This document shows positions 3,690-33,655 of a stretch of DNA of 64,000 bases, one piece after another; the stretch's first letter is position 1; every line of letters starts with the position of its first letter. Location of the stretch: the NCBI GenBank assembly GCA_021817785.1, contig JAKAFY010000004.1:6826-70825 (forward strand). The letters run 5' to 3'. The translations under genes and the position numbers were made by a program. The notes under the pieces are model-generated. The model made no database searches. It was given only the letters and a program-made list of their open reading frames with translations, and was not told where the DNA came from. This stretch comes from a bacterium (GTDB lineage: Bacteria; Patescibacteriota; Microgenomatia; UBA10105; UBA927).

Positions 3690-4232
3690 ATGCCCGAAGA
3701 TACTCTCCGGTCCTATATAGCATCCCAGCGTGCACTGCAGATACCGGACCACTCGATCCGATCCGCACTGGGGGCCAGCGGCTGGAGCACTGCCGACATA
3801 GATGCCGCGCTCAATGGATCTTCGGATACAACACCCCCAAGCTCTGCACCCATACCAGTCCCCGGTGCAATCCGCGTGGTTTCCGTATTACTCGGACTTT
3901 TGTCCCTGGGGGAATTCGGGACGGGATTTGCACTTCTTATAACCATGTTTACGATGAACACCGTGCTTTCCAAAAACGGTGCTGCCCCTCCGTACAGCTT
4001 CATTCCCTATGTATACGGCTTACTTATGAAAGCGGTCTCCGCAATCGGTTCGGGTATCGTATATGCCTATCTGGCTATGCGTGTCGGATACATGGATAAA
4101 AAAGCAATCACGCTCATTATCGTTTCTGTCATCATCCTGCTTGTCATCGAGACCATCACCGGCTCATTTGCTGCCATCCAGTTGCGCGCGCTTATGCAGC
4201 AGGTGACGACCCATTCCGGAGGAAGTCTATGA
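3690..4232 (+). CDS. Hypothetical membrane protein (soluble N-terminal domain plus three TM helices)
   Basis: The coding portion begins at the internal Met MPEDTLRSY. The upstream part of the ORF-track ORF is antisense to the nuclease gene. Hydrophobic helices are visible. Its stop overlaps the next gene's start (ATGA). Confidence 0.5.
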   Translation: MPEDTLRSYIASQRALQIPDHSIRSALGASGWSTADIDAALNGSSDTTPPSSAPIPVPGAIRVVSVLLGLLSLGEFGTGFALLITMFTMNTVLSKNGAAPPYSFIPYVYGLLMKAVSAIGSGIVYAYLAMRVGYMDKKAITLIIVSVIILLVIETITGSFAAIQLRALMQQVTTHSGGSL

Positions 4233-4882
4233 CAAACATCGTCTATATTCTTACGATCTTCAGTATCATCGCACTGCTGCTCGGGGGCAAAAAACAATTC
4301 ACCGAATCATATACCGGACTGACGCGCAAACAAAACATATGGCTCGGCATCATTGCGGCATGTACGGTCACACCGGTGATTATATTCATTGCCTACGTTT
4401 TGTACATTGCCTATGTCCTGAATCCGTCGGATCATTGGTACCGGCAAACCCAGGAGCATACGGCGTACCACATCTATCGCTCATCGTTCCCCCCGTCGGG
4501 AAAAATACAAACCAGCCTCTATATGCCTACGACAATTGCGGGGTATTCCAATGGTATTCGGATTATTTACGATCAAAACATATATCGCCCACGTCCGCAG
4601 GGAGCCACAGGAGCCATCATCGTCAATGAAGTAGGGGTCCCCCCGACGTTTGATATGGCATCATTTATCAGGACAACCTCAGGCATGTTTACGCGTCGGC
4701 GTGTTGATGTCACGACGTCATTCGATCTACAGGGAACGTTACTGGAACAAGAAGCATCCGGTGCGGCTCGCATGGGACTCAAACAATTGATATTCCGCAC
4801 GCCGGACAACGTACTCATCCACATATCCGGTATGGATACGACGGACGCCAATCTCATTCAGGTAGCAAATACCTTAAAATAA
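4229..4882 (+). CDS. Hypothetical protein with two N-terminal TM helices
   Basis: Translationally coupled to the upstream gene by a 4-nt overlap. Two N-terminal hydrophobic helices. No recognisable domain. Confidence 0.5.
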   Translation: MTNIVYILTIFSIIALLLGGKKQFTESYTGLTRKQNIWLGIIAACTVTPVIIFIAYVLYIAYVLNPSDHWYRQTQEHTAYHIYRSSFPPSGKIQTSLYMPTTIAGYSNGIRIIYDQNIYRPRPQGATGAIIVNEVGVPPTFDMASFIRTTSGMFTRRRVDVTTSFDLQGTLLEQEASGAARMGLKQLIFRTPDNVLIHISGMDTTDANLIQVANTLK

Positions 4883-4903
4883 CCAGCGTGTATATCGGCC
4901 GGT

Positions 4904-5149
4904 TTATTTCCCGAACCATCCGTATACCCAGGTAAAGATATAGACGCCCACATATACGTCAAAAAATCCGTATACCAGCCCGACGACGACGCCCGGCAGA
5001 GAAATCGAATACCCGGGATATATGCTAGCCATCACATTCAGAAAATCCGTCGCATACCCGGTATAGACGGATAGCAACGTCGTCACCCCCATAAGCAAAG
5101 CCCACACGGCCCCTCCGGTCAACGCGACTCGCCGCACATTTTTTTTCAT
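4904..5149 (-). CDS. Small membrane protein, 81 aa
   Basis: MKK start. Two hydrophobic helices. Convergent with the upstream plus-strand gene. No known motif. Confidence 0.4.
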   Translation of the reverse strand: MKKNVRRVALTGGAVWALLMGVTTLLSVYTGYATDFLNVMASIYPGYSISLPGVVVGLVYGFFDVYVGVYIFTWVYGWFGK

Positions 5150-5317
5150 AAAAATACCTCCTATGACCAGTATTTACCCCGTCAGGAGAAAATGCAAACA
5201 CACACCCAAGCACAATGATTGACGGTATTTGGTACAATGGTACTTCGTATGGATACATCTATACCATCTCAAACAGTACGTCCGGACAAGACAAACACCC
5301 AATCCGTACTCAACAGG

Positions 5318-5902
5318 ATGAAATCCTGGTATCGCGGCCTGCCGGACAAAAAACGGTATCTTGAATTCATCACCGCATTGCTTACCATACCTGTCCTTCT
5401 GACCGTTCTGTTGAGTAACGTCAACAACCTTCAGAACCAAAAACGGTCCGCTCCGGCCACGGTCATCACCGTACAGCCTACCCCTTCCGCATATCCTTCT
5501 CCGACTCCGGAAACTACAGCGCTGTCCGTCACCCCTTCCGCTACGCCTCCCATCACAGCCACCCCCGGACCACAATGCAACGCAAATATCCCGCCGATCA
5601 CGATCGCCTCCCCTCAGGAAAATGATATCGTCTCCGGAGATCCTGTCTGCCTCGAAATCACCGGACAGGGAGGAAAATATTGCTCCGTCGTCTGGTCCTA
5701 CCGCATCAACGGAGGAGCCTGGAGCAATTATACGAGCGACGGCGTGTGTATGTATGGTCTGGCTCCCGGCAATAAGACGCTGGATCTTCGGGTCCAGAGC
5801 GTCGTCACCGGCGATCAAACGACCCTCACGCGGCATTTTACGGTAGACGGTGTATTGTCTCCTACCCCCACACCGGCCACAGCATCTGCCACCACGCACT
5901 GA
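5318..5902 (+). CDS. Surface or secreted protein: signal-anchor, Pro/Thr-rich linker, small Cys-containing beta domain
   Basis: Internal Met MKSWYRGLPDKKRY is followed by a TM helix. The PT-rich linker reads TPSAYPSPTPETTALSVTPSATPPITATPGP. The C-terminal domain carries four Cys. Paralogous in architecture to 27692-28297 and 42781-43581. Confidence 0.55.
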   Translation: MKSWYRGLPDKKRYLEFITALLTIPVLLTVLLSNVNNLQNQKRSAPATVITVQPTPSAYPSPTPETTALSVTPSATPPITATPGPQCNANIPPITIASPQENDIVSGDPVCLEITGQGGKYCSVVWSYRINGGAWSNYTSDGVCMYGLAPGNKTLDLRVQSVVTGDQTTLTRHFTVDGVLSPTPTPATASATTH

Positions 5903-5930
5903 TACGGTGCACGGTATACTTATTATATAT

Positions 5931-6296
5931 ATGACTGTCCCAGAATTTGAGTCATTGGTAGCAAACGCACTCGATACGCTCCCCGAGCAGTTTGCCGCTA
6001 TTGTCGACAACGTCGAAGTCGTCGTAGAGGTATGGCCAACTCCGGAAGAATTGGCAGAAGGAAACGTGCCGCCGGGTATGACGCTTTTTGGTTTGTACCA
6101 CGGTCTACCCCAAACGCTGCGCTCCAACTACACGGGTGTGCTGCCGGACAAAATCATCATATTTATGGGTCCCATTCTGGAAGCTTGCGGGCACCATCCC
6201 GACGCAATCAAAATCCAGGTCCGCAATACCCTGCTTCACGAACTCGGCCACCACTTCGGCATGAATGATGCGCAAATCCGCAACACCGGAAAATAA
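5931..6296 (+). CDS. Zincin-like metallopeptidase family protein (Zincin_1/DUF1025-like)
   Basis: HExxH motif LLHELGHHFGM near the C-terminus in a roughly 120-aa protein. ATG at 5931. Confidence 0.75.
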   Translation: MTVPEFESLVANALDTLPEQFAAIVDNVEVVVEVWPTPEELAEGNVPPGMTLFGLYHGLPQTLRSNYTGVLPDKIIIFMGPILEACGHHPDAIKIQVRNTLLHELGHHFGMNDAQIRNTGK

Positions 6297-6355
6297 AAGT
6301 ACGGGCAGCGAGCGTTCTGCCGGCATCTCACACACTCACTGCTTTATCGCGCGGA

Positions 6356-6946
6356 TTATGATACCGGTTGGCCGGTCTGCCAATCTAAAAATATCGGCTT
6401 ATGCACATGATACAGCGCCGCGTACTTTGCCGTCTGCAATACCGGCCAGTTGGTATGCAGCATAAACTGCTCGATTACGGCGTCCGGCGTCTGCCGCAGA
6501 AGTGCCGTGGCAGCGCGCAATATCCATTTTCGCTTGAGTATTCCGGACGGCGTTACCAGCACATCATAGGCTTCCGGAAATTTGCTTATTTTTGCAAACT
6601 GGCTCACACGCGATGCTGGCGAGTATTCCACATCCGGCGATTCCCAAAATTCCCGGCGCAGCGGATACGTGCGGTCAAACACGAGCGGAAATACGCTCAT
6701 GGTCCGCATGGCGGCATATTCAGGATTCCCCGCTTCGAGTTTGGGTATGACATCCTGCGCATACGAGCACGCGGATTCCAGCGTTTCGTCTATAGATTCC
6801 AACGGATATATAGCGGTAAGTTCCTGCGACTTCCTGTCCGCAAACAGAACGACCGTCACATATGCTTCTTTTGGAAACACCGGCGTTTTACTGCACCAGG
6901 CGATTTCCTTGCGTTCGCTGATTTTTTTCCGGCGTTTCATACCCAA
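6356..6946 (-). CDS. Hypothetical protein
   Basis: Same strand and immediately downstream of the Rsm22-like gene, so likely an operon. No recognisable motif. Confidence 0.45.
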   Translation of the reverse strand: MGMKRRKKISERKEIAWCSKTPVFPKEAYVTVVLFADRKSQELTAIYPLESIDETLESACSYAQDVIPKLEAGNPEYAAMRTMSVFPLVFDRTYPLRREFWESPDVEYSPASRVSQFAKISKFPEAYDVLVTPSGILKRKWILRAATALLRQTPDAVIEQFMLHTNWPVLQTAKYAALYHVHKPIFLDWQTGQPVS

Positions 6947-6980
6947 AGTATACTATACGTTCCCCGGGAGCATATAAACG

Positions 6981-8003
6981 CTACGATACTTCCATTGACG
7001 TTTCTATGAGCTCTCCCCACCGGATACGTTTTGCAGCAGCGTACTCGACTTTATGCCGCTTCATCACGCGGGCAGTATGTACGCCGTCGGCAGTAAGCAC
7101 CGGCAGAGTCAGGTACCCACGGTATTTTTGTACGCTGCCGATTGCCTGCCCCCAATATGTTGTGGTCATGGGCACACTCCCACACGCGACATAACTATAT
7201 TTCGTTTCTTCCCAATCCGATGCCATGTCACTACTTTCCCGCATACTCTGCCGGATCTTCCGTAAAAAATCCGGTCGTGTAAACAGCTGCGGAAAGTGGA
7301 TCCAATATGCTTCGCTTGGCACAAATGTATTATGTATATACGGCGCGATAAGCGGTGCTTTCAGCACTATCTTTTCTGCTGCCGACCGGATGATGGCATA
7401 CCCGCGCGGCGTTCCCGGTTCCAGCAAAAGAACAATGCCGGAACTGTGTTGTTGTAACGCGGCAAAAAAGTCATCCTTTATCCCTTTTGGCAATTCATTC
7501 AATACATTTGCCACAATGATCAGGTCATACGTGTTGGTGTCGACAGTCGCAGTCCAGCGAGCGACCGTTTGCTGCACCCAGGTAATTTTGGTCGATATAT
7601 GCGCATCGCTGCCGATTTCTTCGGCCAATGAAAGTAAATGTGTATCCTGATCCACACCGACGGCAGCGGTCATATCCGGCCATACAGACGTTGCCGCCCA
7701 TATCCCCGTTCCCGGTCCGCATCCTATGTCCAACACGGATCGCGGTCGCCAATCCGGTACGCGGTCTTGTATCTGTAATAATGCACCGGCAATCTGCGCA
7801 TATGTTGCCGGAAATCGAAGTCCCAAGTACGCCAACGCATCTCCCGGTCCCTGGATATACGATCGCACTCCCCCTTTATCCTGATCCATATACCGCTCAT
7901 GCAGCGTTCTGGAATTTTTCTGCAGCGCACGGATATCTCCCCTGGAGAGTATGTGTTCTGCGGCAGCAGCTATCGCTGGCGGGAGGTCAATAAATGTTTG
8001 CAC
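6981..8003 (-). CDS. Rsm22-family SAM-dependent methyltransferase
   Basis: SAM motif I VLDIGCGPGTG. IIVANVLNEL and overall length fit the Rsm22 small-subunit methyltransferase family. The ORF-track start is GTG. Confidence 0.7.
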   Translation of the reverse strand: MQTFIDLPPAIAAAAEHILSRGDIRALQKNSRTLHERYMDQDKGGVRSYIQGPGDALAYLGLRFPATYAQIAGALLQIQDRVPDWRPRSVLDIGCGPGTGIWAATSVWPDMTAAVGVDQDTHLLSLAEEIGSDAHISTKITWVQQTVARWTATVDTNTYDLIIVANVLNELPKGIKDDFFAALQQHSSGIVLLLEPGTPRGYAIIRSAAEKIVLKAPLIAPYIHNTFVPSEAYWIHFPQLFTRPDFLRKIRQSMRESSDMASDWEETKYSYVACGSVPMTTTYWGQAIGSVQKYRGYLTLPVLTADGVHTARVMKRHKVEYAAAKRIRWGELIETSMEVS

Positions 8004-8030
8004 TATGGGGCAATTATACTACCTGTCGCG

Positions 8031-9080
8031 TTATTCCGGCTCAGGGAGAGACAATCCCTCGACTTCGGGGAGCGCGTTATTGCCGGCTTTCCCCTGCATG
8101 CTGCCGTAGATGTTGGCGGTCGCTGTAATAATGCGCGACAACTGCGCTTCCCGCGCTTTCCACATTTTGTCGTACGCCGCCCGTTCGCGGCCTATCTGTT
8201 CATGCATGTCGCGATACGCCTCAATGACTGCCGTCACCTGTTGCCGGAACTGCGTGCTGGTCACATATTCATATACCAGGTCCGCTTTCCTGCCCTGGTG
8301 CATCTGCGCCGTTTTTTGGTAGGCAACGTTTATTAAAATTTCCCGAAGCAATCCGGCCAAAGGGATCAGTAATTTCCGTTCCGTCACCCACACGCCGTCA
8401 TTGTTAACGATTGCTTCGGCGGCTTCCTTCGGCATCACCTGGGACACGATTGCCGCCATGTCAGCGCCGCTTCTCCGCTGGTCTTCTTTGAGTTTCGGCA
8501 CCCAGCCGTCCGTCCAGTTTTTGGTGCGTTTGGATTCCCACAGTATTTTGCCGCACACGGTTTTGCCGCTCGGACTTTTGACGACCTGCACGCAGTCGCC
8601 GCCCATATCCCCTTTTTCGACAGGCAGGATATCATCCTGCGGATAGGTTTCCCGCAAAGACCGTTCTATGTCGAGTTCTTGCACTTCTCCCTGCGTCTGC
8701 TGGCTTCCCTGGGTTGCCGCGCGCTTGGCTTCTTCGAGGAGTTTATTCAGGCGCTCGATCTGCAGGTCTTTTTCTTTTATCTTAAAGCCCGATTGCTCGT
8801 CGGCTTCTTTCATCGTCGCTTCGCGGATAGCCTTTTTTGCCGCATCAAGTTGCCGTTGCATCTCGAGATCAAATTTTCGTTCTTTTTCTTCAAGCGCATC
8901 TTTTTGCTTGCGAAGTGTTAGTTCCTGTTCTTCCGCTTTTTTCACTGCATCTTTATACCTGATTAATTCTTCCTCATGCCGTTTATTGAGCTTGTCGATT
9001 TCTTCGGTGCGGATGTGCTCGCGCAACGCGTCGCTTATCTCAAATGATTTGCCGCAATGTATGCAGGTGATGGTATCCAT
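8031..9080 (-). CDS. DUF2130 family protein (N-terminal zinc ribbon plus coiled coil)
   Basis: Begins MDTITCIHCGKSFE (CxxC ribbon). A long charged coiled-coil region follows, then the conserved C-terminal domain typical of DUF2130. Confidence 0.65.
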   Translation of the reverse strand: MDTITCIHCGKSFEISDALREHIRTEEIDKLNKRHEEELIRYKDAVKKAEEQELTLRKQKDALEEKERKFDLEMQRQLDAAKKAIREATMKEADEQSGFKIKEKDLQIERLNKLLEEAKRAATQGSQQTQGEVQELDIERSLRETYPQDDILPVEKGDMGGDCVQVVKSPSGKTVCGKILWESKRTKNWTDGWVPKLKEDQRRSGADMAAIVSQVMPKEAAEAIVNNDGVWVTERKLLIPLAGLLREILINVAYQKTAQMHQGRKADLVYEYVTSTQFRQQVTAVIEAYRDMHEQIGRERAAYDKMWKAREAQLSRIITATANIYGSMQGKAGNNALPEVEGLSLPEPE

Positions 9081-9173
9081 AGTGGATGAAAGTATAGTAC
9101 GCCGCGGGATAAAAACCAACAATCCCCCGGAATAGTCCGGGGGATTGCGTTCGTTCTAACCAAATAATATGGG

Positions 9174-9884
9174 TTACAGGATGTTTCCTGAATTCCCCGT
9201 TACGGCGTTTATCCACGTTCCGTGGCTGCCGCCTCTGTATTGCCATCCCCACCAATCGTCCGTGTAGGATGCACCGCTTACGAAATACTGATTGACCCAA
9301 CTTACCAGTCCGGTACACGTCCCGGATATATTGCACTGATAATTGGTAGTCCCCACACTGCCGTGGGTTTTCCACGTCGGGGTAGCAAGGAGCGTCCCCG
9401 TTATGGTTGCCCGTCTGCCGCCCGTCATGCTTCCATGTACCGGTTCATCGGTAGACGTATTAATGAGCGCGCCGGCCGGTCGGTTTCCAGGTCCTACCTG
9501 TCCCGGTATGGCATAAAAGCTCCCGTCGTAGGTGACGATCGCACAATAGGTGCCGGGAGTTGTCTCCCCGGGTGCCACGGTCTGCCAGACTTTGATATGC
9601 CGGGTGTAATAATCAAACGCCCAGTAATTGCCGGTTTCTCCGGAATCCGCATCGTTTTGCACTTTCTGTGTCACTTCGATCACCGGACTCCCGAGTTTTT
9701 TACCGCACGCGGAGTTGGATAATTCGTTATCCGGATTAAACAACCGTCCGTTTCGGTCTTCCTCATGGCCCCGGTCGCCGTTTGGTTTCTCGTCGGCATA
9801 TGCCTGCGTGGTCACCAATGCGAGGGTAAACACAACCAAGGACGCCAATGTTACTCCTAAAACAATTTTTTTCATGTATGTCAC
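9174..9884 (-). CDS. Secreted hypothetical protein
   Basis: GGGAGGTG RBS. Signal peptide MKKIVLGVTLASLVVFTLALVTTQAYA. Gly, Thr and Trp-rich mature part. Confidence 0.6.
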   Translation of the reverse strand: MTYMKKIVLGVTLASLVVFTLALVTTQAYADEKPNGDRGHEEDRNGRLFNPDNELSNSACGKKLGSPVIEVTQKVQNDADSGETGNYWAFDYYTRHIKVWQTVAPGETTPGTYCAIVTYDGSFYAIPGQVGPGNRPAGALINTSTDEPVHGSMTGGRRATITGTLLATPTWKTHGSVGTTNYQCNISGTCTGLVSWVNQYFVSGASYTDDWWGWQYRGGSHGTWINAVTGNSGNIL

Positions 9885-13891: not shown

Positions 13892-15241
13892 TTACACCTG
13901 TGCCGTATCATGCAGATGCGGCAATACGATATCCGAAATTCCCAGTTCAGTGCTCACGCGTTTGGCCAGTATGTTGCGCTGGCCGTCTTCCCCATGTGTC
14001 AGAAATACTTTCTTTACCCCCTGTATAGGCTGCAACCAATCCATCAGCTGCTGCTGGTCGGCGTGCGAGCTCATGGCCTGCGTATCATGCACCACGCCCG
14101 CCACTTTTACGGTTCTGCCGTCTATGTGTACGGTGCGTTTTCCTTCCAGCAGTTCGCGCCCCAGCGTTTCCTCCCCCTGGTATCCCACGATGAGCAATCT
14201 GGTGGACGCAATCGGCAGGTAGCGCATGGCGTGTTCCCGGATTCTTCCCCCGGTCATCATGCCGCTTCCGGCGATGATCACCTTTGCTCCGGGTTGTGTA
14301 TCCAGCGCGATGCTTTCCTTGCGTTTCCCGATGACGATCAGGCCGGGAAATCCGTACGGCCCCTCCCCGCCGGACTCGTAGCGCACATGCGTATTGCAGT
14401 CTTCGGGATACCGGCTATAGATATGGGTTGCGGTGTTCCCCATCGGGCTGTCGGCATACACGGGCGTTTCGCTGCGTACCTTTCCGTCTTTTTTCAAATG
14501 CATGATCATATGCAAAAGTTCCTGCGTCCGCTGCAGGGAAAATGCGGGGATGAGCAGTGTCCCGCCGCTCCCCTCCACCGCATTGATTTCATTTTGGACG
14601 GTCTCCTTGGGGTCAGTAGTAGGATGCAGCCGGTCTCCGTAGGTAGACTCCATCACCACGGCATCGGCGGATTCGATGGTTTCGGTTTCTAAAAGCAAAT
14701 CATCCGGCGAATTTCCCAGGTCGCCGCTAAATACGATGCGTTGTATGTCGGAATCCGCTTTCGTGTCTTTGATCTCGATCATGGCCGACCCCATGATATG
14801 CCCGGCATCGCGAAGCGTTACCATAAAGTCCCCTATTGGAAACGGCGTGCGATAATACACGCGCTGAAACCGCTGGATGGTCTGTAGCACCCTTTCTTCA
14901 TCATACAGCTCGGGCTTTTCGTCTTCTTTGGCTATCTTTGCGCTGTCTATAAGAGACAATTCCGTCAGATCCGCTGTCGCTGGCGTCATCCATATGGGTG
15001 CGGTATATCCGTTTTTTAAAAGTATCGGCAGTCTGCCGCAGTGGTCCAGATGTGCGTGCGTAAGTATTGCGCCGGACAGCGTGCTGCAGTCATACGCGTA
15101 CGGCTGGTAATTTAGCTGTTCTATCTCTGCCGGTCCCTGAAACATCCCGAGGTCTATAAGGATCGATTGTCCGGAGCCGGAAGTTACGACATAGCTCGAG
15201 CCGGTTACGGTGCCGGCAGCTCCCAAAAAGGTTATCTTCAC
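13892..15241 (-). CDS. MBL-fold beta-CASP RNA-metabolising hydrolase (CPSF73/YSH1-like)
   Basis: N-terminal MKITFLGAAGTVTGS. HxHxDH motif ILTHAHLDHCGRLP. Beta-CASP length of about 450 aa. Confidence 0.85.
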   Translation of the reverse strand: MKITFLGAAGTVTGSSYVVTSGSGQSILIDLGMFQGPAEIEQLNYQPYAYDCSTLSGAILTHAHLDHCGRLPILLKNGYTAPIWMTPATADLTELSLIDSAKIAKEDEKPELYDEERVLQTIQRFQRVYYRTPFPIGDFMVTLRDAGHIMGSAMIEIKDTKADSDIQRIVFSGDLGNSPDDLLLETETIESADAVVMESTYGDRLHPTTDPKETVQNEINAVEGSGGTLLIPAFSLQRTQELLHMIMHLKKDGKVRSETPVYADSPMGNTATHIYSRYPEDCNTHVRYESGGEGPYGFPGLIVIGKRKESIALDTQPGAKVIIAGSGMMTGGRIREHAMRYLPIASTRLLIVGYQGEETLGRELLEGKRTVHIDGRTVKVAGVVHDTQAMSSHADQQQLMDWLQPIQGVKKVFLTHGEDGQRNILAKRVSTELGISDIVLPHLHDTAQV

Positions 15242-15716: not shown

Positions 15717-16304
15717 ATGCGCGCAACATATGCTATCCGCCTCCTCGTTCTTGGTGCCGTCATCGCCATCCTTGTTTTCCAAACCATGCAAAAGCCGGCG
15801 CTCCTGCAGCATCCGGCACTTCCCTCGGAGCACACCGGTATAGCCACAGGCAGCGCGGTATTGGGAGTCGTCACCAAATCCGCTGACTGCGTCACCGACG
15901 GCACATTGCCGGACAGCAGTTGTACTCCGGGAGCGATCGACCCCAATGTCACCCAGGACAATATCGGTAGCACCATCTGCGTATCGGGATATACGAAAAG
16001 TGTCCGGCCGGATGTTTCCGTCACCAACACCATCAAAACGAACGTGATGATAGCCTACCGCGACACAGGGACCAAAGCAGACTACGAGCTCGACCACCTT
16101 ATCTCCCTCGAACTCGGCGGGTGTCCGGATTGTGTGGCCAATCTCTGGCCCGAGCCGTATGGCATAGCCTTGGGCGCCCGCGAAAAAGACAAAGTGGAAA
16201 ACTACCTGCGCAAACAGGTGTGCAGCGGCGCCATCAGCTTATCCCAGGCCCAGTCCCAGATCGCCCGCGACTGGGTAAGCGTCTACAGACAACTACCGCA
16301 ATAA
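15717..16304 (+). CDS. Secreted or membrane-anchored HNH-like endonuclease
   Basis: N-terminal TM/signal. Cys-rich. YELDHLISLELGGCPDCVANLWPEP is an HNH-type motif (DH...GG...NLWP). Confidence 0.55.
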   Translation: MRATYAIRLLVLGAVIAILVFQTMQKPALLQHPALPSEHTGIATGSAVLGVVTKSADCVTDGTLPDSSCTPGAIDPNVTQDNIGSTICVSGYTKSVRPDVSVTNTIKTNVMIAYRDTGTKADYELDHLISLELGGCPDCVANLWPEPYGIALGAREKDKVENYLRKQVCSGAISLSQAQSQIARDWVSVYRQLPQ

Positions 16305-17270
16305 TTGAGTTATAAGATTCACAACATGATCTTTCTTTTCAGCCTTACTCTCAGCGACAAGCAACGCCAATGCAGTTAACCCTGCCGGATTGATGCGTCC
16401 GCCTCCCCGCACGCCCGTCTTCCGTAAAAACCAAACGAATGCAAAAGCGCCGGACCTTTTGTTTCCGTCGATAAATGGATGATTTTTTATGATGAAATAC
16501 AGAAGATGCGCGGCTTTTTCTTCAATAGATGCATATAGGTCAGCTCCATTAAATGACTGCATCACATTACCCACTATTCCCTCTATACTCTTCGTTTGTT
16601 TCTCTTTGGCAAATAACTCAGATGCTCCATTTCTTTTTATGAGTTCACGGCGTAAATGAGAGATAGCACGGGTTAATTCGCTCCCCGTCAACTGCACTGC
16701 CTTTTTTGTAAAACCAAGAGGATGTACGGTTCCCTTATCGTATGCTTCAAGCGATACCCACGTCGTAGCAAATTCTTTTATAAGATCCAAAATATTTTTT
16801 GGATCCAACTGGGCGTGTTCAGGCAATAGAGCCTGAATATCTGTTACGGACTTCATAAACGACGTGTAATTTTTGGCGATTCTCTTACGATTTATTGTGT
16901 AGCCGCGCGTTATATGAAGATGCAGTATTTTTGTCGCCCATATCCGAAACTGAGTCGCTCGTTTTGAGCTCACTCGATACCCAATAGACAAAATCATATC
17001 CAAGTTATAGTGCAGGACTTCACGGGAAATACTTCGTATGCCTTCTTGTTGAACTATCCGGATTTTCCGGATAGTTGAAGAATCTCTTAATTCCTCAGAT
17101 GAATAAATATGTTGTATGTGCTCATTCACCGTACGGACATCTACTTCAAACGCGGCCGCGATTTGCGACTGAGTCGCCCAAATAGTTTCATGTGCATAAT
17201 CTCCACGCAACTCTATAGCACCACTTGAGGCTTGGAAGATTACCGACGTAGTTTTTTGTTGCGTTGACAT
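16293..17270 (-). CDS. RhuM-family virulence protein fused to a Doc/Fic (death-on-curing) domain
   Basis: N-terminal RhuM-like region. C-terminal Doc motif HPFIDGNKRSGAFAFVWFLRK (HxFx(D/N)GNKR). Confidence 0.8.
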   Translation of the reverse strand: MSTQQKTTSVIFQASSGAIELRGDYAHETIWATQSQIAAAFEVDVRTVNEHIQHIYSSEELRDSSTIRKIRIVQQEGIRSISREVLHYNLDMILSIGYRVSSKRATQFRIWATKILHLHITRGYTINRKRIAKNYTSFMKSVTDIQALLPEHAQLDPKNILDLIKEFATTWVSLEAYDKGTVHPLGFTKKAVQLTGSELTRAISHLRRELIKRNGASELFAKEKQTKSIEGIVGNVMQSFNGADLYASIEEKAAHLLYFIIKNHPFIDGNKRSGAFAFVWFLRKTGVRGGGRINPAGLTALALLVAESKAEKKDHVVNLITQLLR

Positions 17271-17275
17271 ATACA

Positions 17276-17941
17276 TCACTTCCCGCACGTCTCCGCCTTC
17301 GTATATCCTGCCTTTCTCGCCTCGCGTTCGTCACAAAAATAGTCCTCTCCCCGATTTTTTTCGATCACGGTAAATTTGTACTGCGCGCAGGTGGGCAAAA
17401 AATACGTCTTTACCCCGTTGTCGTCTATGTTTCCCTTTATCGTGCATGTCGAGTTGTCCTTGTTTTCCGTCGACCAGCACGCACCGTATATCCCGCGGTT
17501 AGCCGCACGAGCTTCCGCAGCCGCCGCCTTTAGCGCGTCTTCTTTGGTGGATGTGTCATGGTGGTACGTCGCCCATCCGCTTTTGAGCATCGCTTCGTTT
17601 ACGAGTACGCGCCCGGTATACAGGAGTGCCATCCCCCGTCCCATCTGGTCCGGTATATGTTCGGCTATCACCACCTGTTTTCCCTGGACCAGTGTTTCCA
17701 ATTCTTTTTTGGCTTCTTTCCCGCCGCACGACCCCAATTCAGGGGCATCGATCTGCCGCAATCTCACCCGGTCTTTATTGCCGACTACGATCGTATCCCC
17801 GTCTATGACGCCGATCACCGGCACGCCAATCTCGGGCCGATCGTATTGCCGGGCCAGAAGAACTATATTGAGAAGTATAGACGGGACGAGCAGAACAAGC
17901 CAGACAATTGTTCGCGGGACTATTGATTTTTTATCTATCAT
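17276..17941 (-). CDS. Thermonuclease (SNase-like), membrane-anchored, with Cys-rich C-terminal extension
   Basis: N-terminal TM. VIDGDTIVVGNKDRVRLRQIDAPE is the staphylococcal-nuclease signature. The C-terminal tail has six Cys. Confidence 0.85.
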   Translation of the reverse strand: MIDKKSIVPRTIVWLVLLVPSILLNIVLLARQYDRPEIGVPVIGVIDGDTIVVGNKDRVRLRQIDAPELGSCGGKEAKKELETLVQGKQVVIAEHIPDQMGRGMALLYTGRVLVNEAMLKSGWATYHHDTSTKEDALKAAAAEARAANRGIYGACWSTENKDNSTCTIKGNIDDNGVKTYFLPTCAQYKFTVIEKNRGEDYFCDEREARKAGYTKAETCGK

Positions 17942-18140: not shown

Positions 18141-18563
18141 CTATAACAACGCAGAATATTTGCGCTGATCCGGGATAAGCAGCTTCTGTAATTTATTCCG
18201 TTGTAAAAGATAATTTACTAAACAGTGGAAATCACCGTCACCGGTCACGATGACTGCCTGGTGATATTCAGATATATCCACCATCGCCTGCAACACAAGC
18301 TCTGCATCACAATTTCCTTTCACCGTCCCGTCTTTGTATCGCAATGTTGGTTTAAAGATGAGGACATAGCCTTTTTCCTGTAGCGAGCGGTATAGATCAG
18401 CATTTGATTCAAAATATCCTATAAATAGGTACGCTTTCGTGACATGATATTTGTCGGATAAATACACACGGAACCGATGGTAATCTAGTTGCCAGCCCAT
18501 CTCTTTAAAAGACATTACCAGATTCTGGCTATCGATAAACGCATAATTATTTTGTTTCGCCAT
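18141..18563 (-). CDS. NYN-domain (LabA-like) protein
   Basis: MAKQNNYAFIDSQNL...VIVTGDGDF are NYN/PIN-like motifs. Start taken at the internal Met with a GAGGGT RBS. Confidence 0.75.
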   Translation of the reverse strand: MAKQNNYAFIDSQNLVMSFKEMGWQLDYHRFRVYLSDKYHVTKAYLFIGYFESNADLYRSLQEKGYVLIFKPTLRYKDGTVKGNCDAELVLQAMVDISEYHQAVIVTGDGDFHCLVNYLLQRNKLQKLLIPDQRKYSALL

Positions 18564-18625
18564 ACCCTCACTATATGCGAAATATCGGAAATCTCCTGTA
18601 TGGAAGTTCACAATATGCCATGCCG

Positions 18626-18646
18626 CCCACACACCGGGTGTGTGGG
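18626..18646. repeat. GC-rich palindrome CCCACACACCGGGTGTGTGGG followed by TATTTTTT (copy 1)
   Basis: 10-bp arms. Second copy at 20200-20218. Confidence 0.7.
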
Positions 18647-19754: not shown

Positions 19755-20195
19755 TTACAGTATCCGGTGCAGATTCGCCTCACTCGGCGGCGACGCTTTC
19801 AGTAGGGCGATTACCTCGGCAGCCAGTGCATCGGCAAACGTATCCAGATCCCGGTAATCTTTTGCCACAATCCGCGTCACTCCCCGCTTCCTGGCTTCTT
19901 CGTTATATTTGGGCACCGAAGATATGGCAATCACTTTTTGTGGCCCCAACCGCTCGATATCCAGTACGTGAAACGAGCCTCCCAGTTTACAATCGCGGTC
20001 CAGCAGTATCATGTCAAAAACAGCCGAGGGATTATTATTGATGTATGCTTCCACCTGCAGATAGTTGGTGAGGATCACCATGGAAAACTCATACGGTTGG
20101 TCTTCTTCCACCACTGCCAACTTCTCAAGAATTTTTGACAGCGTCCTTAAATCGTCTTCTAGGATAAGGATGGTTTTGTGGAGGATCATAGCCAC
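19755..20195 (-). CDS. Stand-alone receiver (REC/CheY-like) domain protein
   Basis: ILILEDD acidic pocket. ILLDRD putative phospho-acceptor. About 146 aa with no output domain. Confidence 0.55.
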   Translation of the reverse strand: MAMILHKTILILEDDLRTLSKILEKLAVVEEDQPYEFSMVILTNYLQVEAYINNNPSAVFDMILLDRDCKLGGSFHVLDIERLGPQKVIAISSVPKYNEEARKRGVTRIVAKDYRDLDTFADALAAEVIALLKASPPSEANLHRIL

Positions 20196-20199
20196 CTAC

Positions 20200-20218
20200 C
20201 CACACACCGGGTGTGCGT
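20200..20218. repeat. GC-rich palindrome CCCACACACCGGGTGTGCG (copy 2, imperfect)
   Basis: Shares the 17-nt core CCCACACACCGGGTGTG with copy 1. Sits in the 32-nt gap between the DUF2075 stop and the REC start. Confidence 0.7.
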
Positions 20219-20227
20219 AATGTTTAA

Positions 20228-22114
20228 TTAGACTTTGCCCATATCAATTCTACTTCTCACAAACTTCTCCGTTTCCTTGTCAACGAAATACACATAGCAG
20301 CCGCGGAGGGAGCGGCTGAGGAGTACACGGTAGGTGTTTTTCACCAGATCGAGGAATTTGTCTTTACTGCGACGGACCGTGGAGTCGCAGGAGTTTTCCG
20401 GGTGACCTTCCCACGCTCCGGTTTCAAAATTATAGATCATATCGGCACCGACAATCACGCCGACGTAATTAAATTCAAATCCCTGAATGGTGTAAATGCT
20501 GCCGATTTGATTTATGGCGCGTGGGTCGTATGGCCAAAGTGATGCCGGTGGCACATCAGGCGCTAACCGTCGGCCGTTGATCTCTTTCCCTTCCCACGTC
20601 ATTGCGAACTCGCCGATATGCACGTCTTTCACCAGTGTTCCGTCCGAATTCGGCTCGCTCCATGGCCAACAAAAACCGGCAACCATGCGTGCGGAATTAG
20701 GTTCGTCATCATTTTTCGCTTTAATCTTTTCATATAGCTCCTGCGGGGATTTTACGATCTGAAAATCAAATTCCTCACGCTTCGGATGCCATATTGCTTG
20801 CTCCGTGTCATGTATGCCAAACGTATTATTTACCCATTGGACAAATTTATCCGATCCCTGGCAACGGAATTGAATCGCCAAATTATATTCATGTACGTCG
20901 CACCCCAGACGCTGCGCATTCTCACGTATATAGTTTGTCGAACCGATCTCGCCAGGTCGTACATTTTGTCGATCGTCGATAAAAAATACCGGCACCTTTG
21001 CCACACCGATTAATTCTTCGATCTGCGGCACTTCCGAACGGTACTCTTTTTTCGTAAACCGGTTATTGCTGTTTACACGAATCCGGTGCGATTCATCGGC
21101 GATAAGTACATCAATAGAGTTCGGTTCGGCGCGCACATAACTATTGAAGTATTTCACCTGGGACCTCGCAACGGATCCTAATGATTTCCGAAGTGACTCG
21201 GTAAACGCTTTCGAGCCTGTGGCATATTGTGCATTTTTACCTTGCCGCGATAATTCTGCCAAGAGATTAATTGCTATCACTGACTTACCGGTGCCCGGGC
21301 CGCCATTGACGATGACCACAGATTTTCTTTTGCTTGTCCCCCCGTACTTTACGAGGTTCATCACCCGATCAAACGCAGATAATTGATCATCCAACAGGAT
21401 GTACCGTTTATTTTCTTTTACCACCTTCACGACTTCATCAAGCAAGCGTTTACTGGGCCCATACTTACTCTCTAATACGCGCTCCATGACAGGAACGCCG
21501 TTTCCGTTTATGAGTTTCTGTTTCAAAAAATCACTGAGTTTTGTTACATCCCGCTCACAAAATACCGGGTACTCTTTTACATAATCTGCGTATTGCTCCG
21601 CAAACAACGCATCATGCTCGACCGGAACGTAATTGTGCACATAGGCGCACGCATGCAAACGTACCGGATCCGATTCAAAAAAAGCGGAGTGATTATCTTC
21701 TAAATATAATTTATATTGCCCCACCTGCACCGAAGGATGCAGTACATCCCGGTTCGCACCCCCCACCCATGTCACCACACGCTCGCTCACCTCACTGACT
21801 TCTGCTTTTTCCCATTGTTTAAGCTCTATGATGACAGAATGATCTTTCCCGTTTTCATCTCGACCGCAGATCATGCAGTCAATACGTCTAGAATTAAGGG
21901 GAAGCTGGTATTCCAAAATAACTCCATGATCGTGGAATTCGGAAACTTCAAAAACATCTTTTATCGCCCGGAGCGATGTTCGCCATGACCGGACTTCTGC
22001 GTCAGAAGGGTGGTAGCCAAAATAGTCAATAAACGCCGTCTCCAGCTTTGTTGCTATCGTATTCTGCAACGTGTCTAAGACGAACTCACTTATTGAGCCG
22101 GCGTATAATCTCAT
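20228..22114 (-). CDS. DUF2075-family (Schlafen-like) ATPase/helicase with N-terminal nuclease-like domain
   Basis: Walker A VIVNGGPGTGKSV. Walker B VLIADESHRI. Overall DUF2075 architecture with an N-terminal domain (HSVIIELKQW). ATG 2 nt after the mazG-like stop. Confidence 0.8.
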   Translation of the reverse strand: MRLYAGSISEFVLDTLQNTIATKLETAFIDYFGYHPSDAEVRSWRTSLRAIKDVFEVSEFHDHGVILEYQLPLNSRRIDCMICGRDENGKDHSVIIELKQWEKAEVSEVSERVVTWVGGANRDVLHPSVQVGQYKLYLEDNHSAFFESDPVRLHACAYVHNYVPVEHDALFAEQYADYVKEYPVFCERDVTKLSDFLKQKLINGNGVPVMERVLESKYGPSKRLLDEVVKVVKENKRYILLDDQLSAFDRVMNLVKYGGTSKRKSVVIVNGGPGTGKSVIAINLLAELSRQGKNAQYATGSKAFTESLRKSLGSVARSQVKYFNSYVRAEPNSIDVLIADESHRIRVNSNNRFTKKEYRSEVPQIEELIGVAKVPVFFIDDRQNVRPGEIGSTNYIRENAQRLGCDVHEYNLAIQFRCQGSDKFVQWVNNTFGIHDTEQAIWHPKREEFDFQIVKSPQELYEKIKAKNDDEPNSARMVAGFCWPWSEPNSDGTLVKDVHIGEFAMTWEGKEINGRRLAPDVPPASLWPYDPRAINQIGSIYTIQGFEFNYVGVIVGADMIYNFETGAWEGHPENSCDSTVRRSKDKFLDLVKNTYRVLLSRSLRGCYVYFVDKETEKFVRSRIDMGKV

Positions 22115-22116
22115 GG

Positions 22117-22506
22117 TTATAATTCCGTATACTTTTTATGATTTCCTTTTGCTTTATTCACTGGGTATTTTTTACTACTTACTGCCATTTTATTTTTAAA
22201 CGCCTGTACAATATCTATATCTAAATCGTGACTCATGAGTAATACCCAGTACAATACATCAGAAAGTTCCTCGCCTAATTCTATTTTATGTGTTTTAAGA
22301 TACACCTGTATTTCTTTTTCGTTTTTCCATTGAAAATGCTCCATTACCTCTGTGGCTTCTAATACGAGGGATAGCGAGGTATCTTTGGGATTATGAAATT
22401 TTTTCCAATCCCGTGCATTGCGGAATTTAATGATGAGATTCGTTAATTCTTGTATGTCTGACATAAAGTACCGGTTTATAGTACTGCTTTTGGCGCTTAT
22501 TCGCAA
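22117..22506 (-). CDS. MazG-like nucleotide pyrophosphohydrolase (NTP-PPase)
   Basis: HNPKDTSLSLVLEATEVMEHFQWK...ELGEELSDVLYWVLL is the MazG/YpjD-type EExxE/D pattern. Tightly coupled to both neighbours. Confidence 0.75.
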   Translation of the reverse strand: MRISAKSSTINRYFMSDIQELTNLIIKFRNARDWKKFHNPKDTSLSLVLEATEVMEHFQWKNEKEIQVYLKTHKIELGEELSDVLYWVLLMSHDLDIDIVQAFKNKMAVSSKKYPVNKAKGNHKKYTEL

Positions 22507-22511
22507 TCTGT

Positions 22512-23198
22512 TTATAACAAATTTTTCTGTTTCAAACTTATATATCCTTCCGAAGAAATAATAATGTGGTCAATGACATGCACACCCGTCAATTCCCCGA
22601 CGGAAACCAATCTCTGAGTGAGATTCAAATCTTCATCTGAGGGTGTTAAGTCCCCAGATGGATGATTATGTGCTAATACAATACGAGCAGCTAATTGTTT
22701 TATCGCAGGTTCAAACACCTCTCTAGGATGCACGAGCGAAGAATTGAGAATTCCGACAGAAATATCACGTATGTCAATCAAATTATTTTGTGCATCGAGA
22801 AGCAATATTACAAAGTGCTCTTTTTTCTCACGACCCAACCGTTTCTGTAAATAGTCAGCTACCTTATTGGGGGATGTTAACGATATCTTCGTTGGCAGCG
22901 TTTCTTTGGCATACCGCTCAGCGATTGCCTGAAATAGTTTTATGCCAAACGCATTTGACGGGCCGATACCCTGTATCATTTGTACGTCTTCGTCAGATGC
23001 GTCCAGCACCCCGCGCAATCCGTTAAAGTGTTTTATCGCTTCTTTCGCAATCGCCTTACAGTCTTTGCGTGGAGTTCCCAATGTGAGGAGGAGTTCTACG
23101 ATTTCATAATCCAAAAATCCATCAAGTCCCGACCGGAGAAACCGCTCTCGCAATCGCTTCCGGTGTCCGGCGTGCGGGTATGTACCTCTTTGCTTCAC
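22512..23198 (-). CDS. radC: RadC-family JAB-domain protein
   Basis: N-terminal HhH region. JAMM motif HNHPSGDLTPSDED. Confidence 0.9.
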   Translation of the reverse strand: MKQRGTYPHAGHRKRLRERFLRSGLDGFLDYEIVELLLTLGTPRKDCKAIAKEAIKHFNGLRGVLDASDEDVQMIQGIGPSNAFGIKLFQAIAERYAKETLPTKISLTSPNKVADYLQKRLGREKKEHFVILLLDAQNNLIDIRDISVGILNSSLVHPREVFEPAIKQLAARIVLAHNHPSGDLTPSDEDLNLTQRLVSVGELTGVHVIDHIIISSEGYISLKQKNLL

Positions 23199-23289: not shown

Positions 23290-23535
23290 CTATTTCGGAC
23301 CATTTTTTTGTGCCGCAACTCGCCAACTAAATATACCTTTTCCCCCACCCCTCCTCGACCTCGCATATCCTCTGTTGAGATGTTTCCCTTGAGGGCCATC
23401 GTGTAATTCTCGAAGTAAATCAAGCTCCCGATCACTTAGCGTAGATGGATCGATTTGCAGCTTATGCGCCAAATCATTTCTAGCTGCTATCGCCCAGATT
23501 GCTGCTAATTTTTCTTCTGAAATGTTATCAAACAT
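23290..23535 (-). CDS. Hypothetical protein
   Basis: 81-aa ORF with no motif. Confidence 0.25.
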   Translation of the reverse strand: MFDNISEEKLAAIWAIAARNDLAHKLQIDPSTLSDRELDLLRELHDGPQGKHLNRGYARSRRGGGKGIFSWRVAAQKNGPK

Positions 23536-23595: not shown

Positions 23596-23889
23596 TTAAC
23601 CACAAGTTTTCTCAGGATGCTCGAAATGAAAATATGTAAGATGATCGAGAATTTCCTGAGCGGTCCAATCCCATACGGAGTTTGTACGTATCATCTCGCG
23701 GTACTCATCTCTATGATTCCTCGCGACACCAAGATAATACGCAAATTTTGGGTGTTCCGGCCCGTCTTTCAATGCATCCAGCATGTTCGAAAAAAAGAAC
23801 GATTCGATCCCAAAATCCGACATTTCCCGATACTCACGTATTTCCGCTCTCATGATATATATTATAGGATATTTTATGCCTTCCATCAA
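23596..23889 (-). CDS. Hypothetical protein
   Basis: 97-aa ORF with acidic and aromatic residues and no motif. Confidence 0.3.
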   Translation of the reverse strand: MMEGIKYPIIYIMRAEIREYREMSDFGIESFFFSNMLDALKDGPEHPKFAYYLGVARNHRDEYREMIRTNSVWDWTAQEILDHLTYFHFEHPEKTCG

Positions 23890-32395: not shown

Positions 32396-33655
32396 TCAGT
32401 CTACCTGATAAATCGGCATCGTTTTCGCGGTTTCCACCGCTTCTTTCAGGCGCCATTTATCAGAACTGTAAAACGTCCCTAGTATATCACCTTTATCCAC
32501 TGTCTCTTCAAGTTTCCGGTTCATATAGATGCCGGCCAGCTTGTCCGTCGGGTTGCCGAGTATGCGGCAGATCACGGAAATCTGCTGGTTATTGATATGC
32601 GACACGATTCCGTGCCGCGGAGCTTTCAGTTCAAATTTTTCCTTCCCGGGCGTCAGCTTGCTGCTCACCACATTGGGGTCGCCGCCCTGTGCTTTGATGA
32701 TCTCCCGCATTTTTTTGAGCGCCTTGCCCGACGTCAGCATTTCCCGCGCCACTTCCTCGCCGTTTAACGATTTTTTGGACGGTATATCGGCAAAACACAG
32801 TGTCAGAAGTTTCCCCGCCAGCCGGAGTGCTTTCGCTTCCAGCGCAAGCGGCCGTTCCGGTGCCTGCTCCAGCACCTGGAACACATCGCGCGCTTCCAGC
32901 ACGGGCCCGATGCCGCGCCCTGCATTTTGGCGCATTTCGTTTATGTCAAAAATCATTTTGAGCCCGAACCGCTTTGCCAGTCCGGCAAACTTTTTGGCGA
33001 TGACTTCCGCATCCTTAAAGTGCTGTATTTTCATCGTGGGACCGACGGGCAGATCGATGACGACGTGATTGGCTCCCGATGCGACTTTTTTGGCCATCAC
33101 GGACACGATGACCTTGTCATAGGATTCAAATCCCAACGGCCGTTCCACCTGGATTAATATATCGTCCGCGGGAGCCAGCCCCACGTGCCCGCCCCAGACG
33201 ATGCATCCGCCCACGGTGTTGACGATGTGCGTTATCTGCGACGTGGTAAATGTTACCGGGGCGATGACTTCCATCGTATCCGCGGTTCCGGACGGAGATG
33301 TTATCGCCCGTGTGGAGGTTTTGGGAATTTTGAGTCCTGCTGCCGCGACGATCGGCACCAATATCATCGTCGTTCTGGTGCCTGCGACTCCCCCGGTGGA
33401 ATGTTTGTCCGCGACCACCCCGGAAAAATGAAGTCTCGGGCCGGTGTTGATCATGGCTTTCGTCAAAAAATACAGTTCCTCATCCGAAAATCCTTCCTTA
33501 AATCCCGCGGCCGCAAAATACGTCGTCAGCACGGGACTTAAGTCCTTATTGGATATCTGGTCCATGATCGCAAAAATCTCCCGGTACGAGAGTTCCTTGC
33601 CGACCAGTTTCTTTTTAATCGCTTCGATAGCAAATTGTTTATCGTCTTTGTGCAT
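32396..33655 (-). CDS. Thymidine-phosphorylase-family nucleoside/AMP phosphorylase
   Basis: DKHSTGGVAGTRTTM is the family signature. Glycosyltransferase family 3 N-domain. About 419 aa. Confidence 0.8.
   Translation of the reverse strand: MHKDDKQFAIEAIKKKLVGKELSYREIFAIMDQISNKDLSPVLTTYFAAAGFKEGFSDEELYFLTKAMINTGPRLHFSGVVADKHSTGGVAGTRTTMILVPIVAAAGLKIPKTSTRAITSPSGTADTMEVIAPVTFTTSQITHIVNTVGGCIVWGGHVGLAPADDILIQVERPLGFESYDKVIVSVMAKKVASGANHVVIDLPVGPTMKIQHFKDAEVIAKKFAGLAKRFGLKMIFDINEMRQNAGRGIGPVLEARDVFQVLEQAPERPLALEAKALRLAGKLLTLCFADIPSKKSLNGEEVAREMLTSGKALKKMREIIKAQGGDPNVVSSKLTPGKEKFELKAPRHGIVSHINNQQISVICRILGNPTDKLAGIYMNRKLEETVDKGDILGTFYSSDKWRLKEAVETAKTMPIYQVD

Follow-up and report, generated by a model that had tools for sequence, protein, structure and literature searches.

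A stretch of 64,000 nt from contig JAKAFY010000004.1 (the window) carries on its minus strand an operon made of radC, a MazG-like gene and a gene for a 628-aa nuclease-helicase. The last two genes are predicted, from comparison across species, to form a translationally coupled two-gene cassette found in both bacteria and archaea, and the large protein is distantly homologous to Nhi-like, a verified anti-phage protein. On balance we favour the view that the operon is an accessory defence against cytosine-modified DNA, in which an Nhi-like effector is joined by a MazG enzyme acting on the (modified) dCTP pool. An earlier note on this DNA had read three co-directional open reading frames (ORFs) here and named them RadC, MazG and DUF2075; the ORFs are present, and all three assignments pass profile searches.

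The 628-aa protein combines an N-terminal PD-(D/E)xK nuclease domain with a C-terminal superfamily 1B (SF1B) helicase of the Schlafen group 3 (SLFN-g3/DUF2075) type, the latter matched by Pfam PF09848 across residues 264-612 (E = 5.9e-86). The candidate catalytic residues of the nuclease domain, D79, E97 and K99, are invariant among the relatives, as are the Walker A motif GGPGTGKS (271-278) and the Walker B residues D340-E341. An AlphaFold model from 35 relatives has a predicted local distance difference test (pLDDT) score of 82. Structure search supports both the nuclease and the helicase folds, and the Foldseek matches of the C-terminal part are the SF1B helicases RecD2, Dda, SLFN11, Upf1 and Dna2. 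A PDB sequence search with the helicase profile gave no matches, and no modified-base reader domain of the EVE, SRA or MrcB_N type is recognisable in the protein.

The closest functional reference is Nhi-like SG141 of Bacillus cereus FSL H8-0482, which protects Bacillus from phage (Millman et al. 2022, bioRxiv 10.1101/2022.05.11.491447). It has the same arrangement of N-terminal PD-(D/E)xK nuclease and DUF2075 SF1 helicase within ~610-630 aa, and both proteins are found in a defence-island setting. With the partial SG141 sequence given in the supplement of that work, BLASTP aligned residues 4-344 of the window protein at 22% identity (E = 3e-8) and hhalign returned a probability of 97.3% (E = 2.7e-11). 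The alignment is collinear through the nuclease domain and the first helicase lobe. Because of this homology to an experimentally verified anti-phage protein, the large protein is taken as a distant member of the Nhi-like family. The original Nhi (SERP2475, Staphylococcus epidermidis; Bari et al., bioRxiv 10.1101/776245) is likewise a PD-(D/E)xK plus DUF2075 nuclease-helicase and has the structural neighbours Dda, Upf1 and Dna2 in common with the window protein; however, it is a single-gene system, and its PADLOC model matches the window protein in the first helicase lobe only. The PADLOC models of Nhi (1.4e-11) and AbiO (8e-12) are both limited to residues 235-417, and the best PADLOC match, to the candidate family PDC-S41 (3.4e-19), comes in three partial stretches. 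PADLOC v2 thus matches the large protein weakly (PDC-S41, AbiO and Nhi) and leaves the MazG and RadC genes unrecognised. It is noted that two DUF2075 nuclease-helicase genes stand in tandem (3904-5760 and 6001-7890) on the mobilizable Hymenobacter canadensis plasmid NZ_CP114769.1 (L170), downstream of a DNA methyltransferase gene and a DUF4747 gene; a MazG gene is not annotated there.

The gene upstream of the nuclease-helicase gene encodes a MazG-like protein that matches Pfam PF12643 at 4.5e-14 (52.9 bits against a gathering cutoff of 27). Its residues 4-115 match dCTP pyrophosphatase 1 (DCTPP1; PDB 6sqw and 2a3q) at 5.1e-18, and it matches an archaeal pyrophosphatase (PDB 4qgp) at 1.8e-18, in both cases over the full length. 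None of the metal-binding residues of the EXXE...EXXD motif (E36, E39, E66, D69) varies among the 51 partner sequences compared. This motif and a C-terminal KYT[ED]L tail are also present in DCTPP1/RS21-C6 and in 4qgp. The partner is accordingly predicted to be an all-alpha deoxynucleoside triphosphate (dNTP) pyrophosphatase of the DCTPP1/RS21-C6 type with an intact active site. DCTPP1 is a pool-sanitising enzyme that prefers dCTP and 5-modified dCTP (PMC7162842, PMC4491611). It is, however, a eukaryotic housekeeping sanitiser, whereas the enzyme predicted here is encoded in a mobile defence cassette.

Relatives of the MazG partner are 115-120 aa long and begin at the equivalent of ATG 22464; given these lengths, TTG 22506 was discarded as the start codon. 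The gap between radC and the MazG-like gene is therefore most likely 47 nt, and the 5 nt reported in the earlier note applies to the longest ORF only, while the 2-nt gap between the MazG and helicase genes stands. The closest plasmid-borne MazG-like relative (51% identity) is encoded at 5001-5348 on plasmid pART37 of Paenibacillus sp. 37 (L173), where it adjoins a DNA topoisomerase III gene (5625-9239) and not a DUF2075 helicase gene. The MazG clade is thus not exclusive to Nhi-like genes.

A scan of one genome per species returned more than 589 helicase loci. The counts given here are over the best 80, which have 47-81% identity and span ~25 phyla of bacteria and archaea, with genes in the fetched loci called by a simple longest-ORF rule. 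Of these 80 species-level loci, 58 have a MazG-like gene; it adjoins the helicase gene in 53 and, in 48, directly precedes it on the same strand. Forty of 42 adjacent pairs overlap or lie no more than 10 nt apart, and 15 of them overlap by 4 nt. On plasmids of Priestia and Bacillus, where helicase identity falls to 24-36%, the pairing is kept: the gene order is MrcB_N-HNH, MazG, DUF2075 on the Priestia plasmid, where the MrcB_N-HNH gene overlaps the MazG start, and HNH, MazG, DUF2075 on megaplasmids of the Bacillus cereus group. Cultivable carriers of the pair include Bacillus mycoides (p419, L174, with HNH, MazG and helicase genes), Parageobacillus caldoxylosilyticus NBRC 107762 (L026) and Lysobacter enzymogenes ATCC 29487 (L089). 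RadC, by comparison, was found in 1 of the 80 loci. Since MazG recurs so much more often than RadC and the pairing persists at such low identity, the widely conserved unit is the pair of MazG and nuclease-helicase. Co-evolution of the identities of the two proteins is weak (Spearman 0.29, p = 0.047) and was not used as evidence. SG141 had been cloned as a single gene, on a 2331-nt insert without MazG. In contrast, MazG is coupled to the helicase in most of the relatives compared here, with RadC linked in addition in the Candidate Phyla Radiation (CPR); the frequency of MazG together with the predicted translational coupling argues for a two-gene variant of Nhi-like. No paper combining DUF2075 with MazG, or Nhi with MazG, was found in the literature library searched, and MazG is unmentioned in the Millman preprint and in a 2025 nuclease-NTPase preprint. 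The description of the module as uncharacterised, made in the earlier note, has to be given up for the large protein, given its homology to Nhi-like.

The family occurs on 82 plasmid records but on just 4 from phages, and among 2.9 million viral contigs only 7 carry it; a phage origin was rejected on these counts. Megablast with an Enterobacteriaceae relative found no carriers in E. coli. HNH endonuclease genes adjoin the pair more often than any others do (20 of 80 loci), and the commonest of these, family K2 in 17 loci, matches the EVE-HNH enzyme VcaM4I (PDB 6yex) at 8.6e-12 and TagI more weakly. Restriction-modification (RM), Abi and Fic genes are also frequent. Enzymes of type IV or modification-dependent restriction (McrBC, VcaM4I, TagI) recur beside the cassette, and Lutz et al. 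had earlier remarked on DUF2075 NTPases adjoining modification-dependent enzymes. Many loci without MazG have a TPR-repeat protein directly upstream of the nuclease-helicase (L019, L022, L047, L059, L071, L072 and L082), which may be an alternative partner to MazG. A C-terminal Peptidase_S24 (LexA/UmuD-like) domain is carried by 26 of the 80 cross-phylum relatives (e.g. L012-L015, L017, L020, L021 and L023) and may serve regulation in response to damage or RecA; the same domain is also present on P0077, P0092 and P0098.

The nature of the target is suggested by the genetics of the homologue. In SPbeta phages that escape Nhi-like, mtbP, a gene for a cytosine methylase, carries deletions or frameshifts (Millman et al. 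supplement, 10.1101/2022.05.11.491447). Escape from Nhi, by contrast, occurs via phage replication proteins. The verified Nhi-like homologue is thus sensitised by phage cytosine methylation, a likeness to type IV restriction, and the window protein would have a similar modification dependence. Because of this escape by methylase loss and the modification-dependent HNH neighbours, we propose that modified cytosines are targeted. The nuclease-helicase would load onto and degrade invading DNA with modified cytosines, or phage replication intermediates, and the MazG partner would hydrolyse dCTP or 5-modified dCTP. This hydrolysis could either rob the phage of modified precursors or prevent the host chromosome from taking up modified dCMP freed when DNA is degraded; once re-incorporated, such dCMP would, in this proposal, expose the host to attack by its own nuclease. 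We infer the whole mechanism, modified-DNA targeting and dCTP removal alike, by analogy, and regard it as probable.

Several points weigh against this interpretation. The verified homologue works alone, with no MazG, and MazG is missing in 22 of the 80 loci, which indicates that it is not essential to the effector. The homology to Nhi-like is distant (22% identity), and modification dependence would be carried over from that homologue and from themes in the neighbourhood; likewise, dCTP and 5-modified dCTP are presumed substrates, by extension from mammalian DCTPP1. For the MazG-paired members the support comes from sequence and structure comparison and from gene neighbourhoods. RadC was found in 0 of 82 non-CPR-type loci, and its adjacency elsewhere is possibly a hotspot effect, because CPR relatives of RadC adjoin many different defence genes. 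An apparent exclusion between RadC and the fused S24 peptidase, the S24 domain being in none of nine RadC-linked loci, is not significant (p = 0.055) and was discarded.

The roles of the two proteins could also be reversed, with MazG as the main effector that collapses the dCTP pool on infection and the helicase-nuclease as its sensor or activator. Such an abortive defence by dNTP depletion would fit the intact and invariant MazG active site and the tight co-translation of the two genes, and defensive dNTP-depleting enzymes (dCTP deaminase, dGTPase) are established. However, the helicase-nuclease homologue defends alone, the nuclease triad is invariant, and in the 22 loci where MazG is missing the nuclease-helicase is always intact. 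We consider this arrangement improbable.

A role in housekeeping repair and pool sanitation has to be weighed as well: MazG would clear non-canonical dNTPs, the nuclease-helicase would handle damaged or stalled DNA, and RadC would assist. DCTPP1 does sanitise the nucleotide pool, SF1B nuclease-helicases such as Dna2 work in repair, the LexA/UmuD-type S24 domain on so many relatives suggests a link to DNA damage, and the trio is kept in reduced CPR genomes. Nevertheless, the distribution is patchy, with 47-64% identity over ~25 phyla including archaea, the family is carried on plasmids, the neighbours are RM, Abi and HNH modification-dependent restriction endonuclease genes, and a homologue is verified as anti-phage. 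In the window the operon lies in an AT-rich region beside transposase and toxin genes, and close CPR relatives lack the cassette or have other cargo. A housekeeping role is very unlikely on this evidence, and the defence operon directed at modified cytosines remains our preferred reading.

The third gene, radC, calls for separate consideration. Its product matches Pfam RadC (1.1e-44) and UPF0758_N, the HhH domain (7e-10), as well as the NCBIfam equivalog PRK00024 (223.3 bits against a cutoff of 180) and TIGR00608 (200 bits against 133.85), and the motif HNHPSGD is present in its JAB domain. As the PRK00024 cutoff is passed, the protein is of the full-length HhH plus JAB type and not a short JAB-only paralogue. 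The E. coli proteins YeeS, YkfG and YfjY are short JAB-only RadC-like paralogues of prophages and conjugative elements; they resemble the window protein in having a JAB domain in a mobile or defence setting and differ from it in lacking the full-length form. We know of no established function for RadC, a near-universal bacterial gene whose original assignment to DNA repair was withdrawn.

The window is contained in assembly GCA_027341155.1. The host genome belongs to the CPR/Patescibacteria and is Gottesmanbacteria-like; the nearest named relatives of its AlaRS are from Candidatus Gottesmanbacteria, Patescibacteria and Woesebacteria (67-74%). RadC is adjacent in all nine CPR-type helicase-anchored loci (L006, L010, L182 and L176-L181), a small sample that is phylogenetically non-independent. 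Within the helicase subfamily of the window, RadC accompanies 3 of 3 loci at 72% identity or more and 0 of 5 at 60-72%. In a second helicase subfamily (~42% identity), whose six members were picked without regard to RadC, RadC and MazG are directly adjacent in all six, with gaps of 4-8 nt in five of the six loci and different flanks at every locus.

Sampling from the side of RadC extends this picture. Among 80 metagenome loci with close RadC relatives (L090-L169), 61 have enough downstream sequence, and MazG stands beside RadC in 19 of the 61. The full trio is present in 12 RadC-anchored loci: RadC comes first in eight (RadC-MazG-DUF2075) and MazG in the other four (MazG-RadC-DUF2075). RadC lies between MazG and the helicase in L180 also; the helicases in the RadC-anchored loci are ~80% or ~42% identical to the window protein. 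An interim view that RadC is coincidental, taken from its single occurrence among the 80 best helicase loci, was revised after the RadC-anchored and second-subfamily sampling. The three-gene module proposed in the earlier note therefore recurs beyond this genome, in two gene orders and with differing flanks, in CPR-type loci, and was found in 0 of 82 loci elsewhere. Two records carry the CPR-type trio under other labels: L010 (CAZHOQ010000028.1), labelled 'uncultured Gammaproteobacteria' and syntenic with the window, and L188 (IMGVR_UViG_GVMAG-S-1041346-124_000001), labelled a giant-virus metagenome-assembled genome. Both are probably mis-binned or mislabelled.

In five loci a protein of 367-410 aa, here c7, replaces the DUF2075 helicase after RadC-MazG. 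It matches nothing in Pfam or PADLOC, and its C-terminal region has a weak resemblance to the Hjc resolvase (E = 0.11); an EVE-like appearance of c7, judged by eye, was not used as evidence. The presence of c7 in the place of the helicase suggests that MazG is combined with interchangeable nucleases. In at least ten loci a further protein, c6 (~233 aa, with a C-terminal HNH motif), is encoded directly 3' of the helicase gene or overlapping it, giving a four-gene variant. Pfam, PADLOC and PDB profile searches gave no identification for the N-terminal domains of c7 and c6.

The cargo next to radC in the CPR loci is diverse. In ~20 loci radC is directly followed by a gene for a type III DNA methyltransferase; in ~8 the next gene is for a type I methyltransferase, at times accompanied by a Phd antitoxin. 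Close RadC relatives lacking MazG also have AbiEi/AbiEii, SoFic, Phd or HNH genes at their flanks, with AbiEi/AbiEii, SoFic and HNH upstream. RadC appears, from these gene neighbourhoods, to lie inside defence islands in this CPR lineage. It is thus possible, though we doubt it, that a single-copy housekeeping RadC simply stands in or beside an integration hotspot for defence islands, the pair being one cargo of many and RadC having no part in its function. The rarity of RadC among the best helicase loci, its full-length PRK00024 equivalog type, the variety of methyltransferase, Phd, AbiE, SoFic and MazG genes that follow or flank it, and a synteny common to the window, L006 and L010 at 4-10 kb further on are all in line with a hotspot. 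On the other hand, the direct adjacency in every CPR-type helicase-anchored locus, the short gaps in the second subfamily, the variation of both flanks between loci and the position of RadC between MazG and helicase in four RadC-anchored loci and L180 are not readily explained by it, and in a neighbour-joining tree the type of cargo follows the RadC clade and is not scattered over the tree.

A functional link of RadC is favoured by how closely the genes are spaced, by the occurrence of two gene orders and by flanks that vary, and the absence of RadC outside the CPR indicates that the pair can do without it. Our best guess is that RadC is a DNA-bound JAB peptidase or a regulator of the effector; the S24 fusion of the non-CPR relatives may be loosely analogous to it. 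A stronger version would make RadC a dedicated part of a modular family of CPR immune operons, in which RadC and a DCTPP1-like MazG are combined with interchangeable nucleases (two Nhi-like types or c7) and sometimes an added HNH protein. We put this version forward tentatively and hold it to be rather unlikely as it stands.

The surroundings of the operon in the window are those of an accessory, defence-rich region and not of a housekeeping one, as the earlier note had proposed. Profile searches identified a RAYT-like Y1 transposase, an NYN-domain protein, an SNase and a RhuM-Fic/Doc fusion as its neighbours, and the GC content is 38.4% at 22-23 kb versus 52-55% in the flanking core genes, in agreement with the AT-richness noted before. 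Housekeeping genes in the window encode short-form AlaRS, FtsK, RNase J, PNPase and an archaeal-type AMP/thymidine phosphorylase, the last of which is consistent with the nucleotide-salvage metabolism described for CPR bacteria. The positions of the features are collected in Table 1. The 81-aa and 97-aa ORFs between transposase and radC are called as genes on identical contigs of other samples too. No RNA elements or tRNA integration sites were found in the window. A scan for promoters and terminators was uninformative: shuffled sequences gave more promoter-like sites than the native one. The GC palindrome described earlier in the 32-nt gap after the helicase gene was recovered as a small hairpin, which is not followed by a T-tract on the minus (coding) strand.

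Table 1. Features in and around the operon. Coordinates are positions in the 64,000-nt window, except for c6 and c7, which are given as locus:positions.
Feature	Position	Strand	Remarks
radC	22512-23198	-	first operon gene; Pfam RadC and UPF0758_N
MazG-like gene	22117-22464	-	115 aa from ATG 22464; longest ORF extends to TTG 22506
Nhi-like nuclease-helicase gene	20228-22114	-	628 aa; starts 2 nt past the MazG stop codon
PD-(D/E)xK nuclease domain	21335-22114	-	predicted; residues 1-260 of the 628-aa protein
SF1B helicase/DUF2075 (Schlafen group 3) domain	20279-21325	-	residues 264-612
small GC hairpin	20201-20215		CACAC-CCG-GTGTG; 5-bp stem, 3-5-nt loop; within the 32-nt spacer 3' of the helicase gene
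146-aa ORF	19755-20195	-	downstream of the operon; no family match
NYN-domain gene	18141-18632
SNase gene with 'sunset' domain	17276-17941		precedes the RhuM-Fic/Doc gene, 13-nt overlap
RhuM-Fic/Doc fusion	16293-17288	-	full-length match to PADLOC candidate family PDC-S23, 1.7e-105
beta-CASP metallo-beta-lactamase protein	13892-15241	-	resembles models of type VII CRISPR Cas14 (9e-97) and archaeal aCPSF1 (1e-76), scoring far under the curated cutoffs of both
81-aa ORF	23290-23535	-	between RAYT-like transposase and radC; no family match
97-aa ORF	23596-23889	-	between RAYT-like transposase and radC
archaeal-type AMP/thymidine phosphorylase	32396-33655	-
c6 genes	L178:4857-5558, L182:4886-5578, L183:4881-5582, L184:4809-5561, L093:7967-8665		also in L149, L162, L013, L056, L079
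c7 genes	L104:4912-6012, L106:5913-7142, L118:2291-3391, L133:983-2155, L168:3576-4763

The 146-aa ORF downstream of the operon had been read as a receiver-only gene. This reading was dropped: the ORF has no match in Pfam (Response_reg included), NCBIfam or PADLOC even at E <= 10, a BLASTP comparison with CheY gave E = 33, that is, no similarity, and tblastn found relatives in 0 of the 176 related loci searched. Its clustered protein entry is a singleton. In L178 and L182-L184 the same slot holds the unrelated c6 HNH protein. The 146-aa ORF is probably outside the module.

The comparison as a whole separates what is known from what is new. Nhi-like is known as a single-gene effector; a conserved DCTPP1-like partner, for which no description was found, and a CPR-specific three-gene form with RadC would be the additions. 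If the proposal is correct, the single-gene defence 'Nhi-like' becomes a widespread two-gene system in bacteria, archaea and plasmids, and a modification-directed nuclease-helicase would need a DCTPP1-like enzyme to manage modified dCTP. As animals have counterparts of both Schlafen-type helicases and DCTPP1, an old functional tie between nucleotide-pool sanitation and nucleic-acid immunity is hinted at. The linkage in the CPR is a concrete genomic clue to the function of RadC, and CPR defence islands appear to be arranged around radC. Should the modular reading of RadC hold, RadC would act on foreign or modified DNA or regulate the effector proteolytically, and we would know of no report earlier than this operon in which a defence nuclease is paired with sanitation of the nucleotide pool to protect its own cell.

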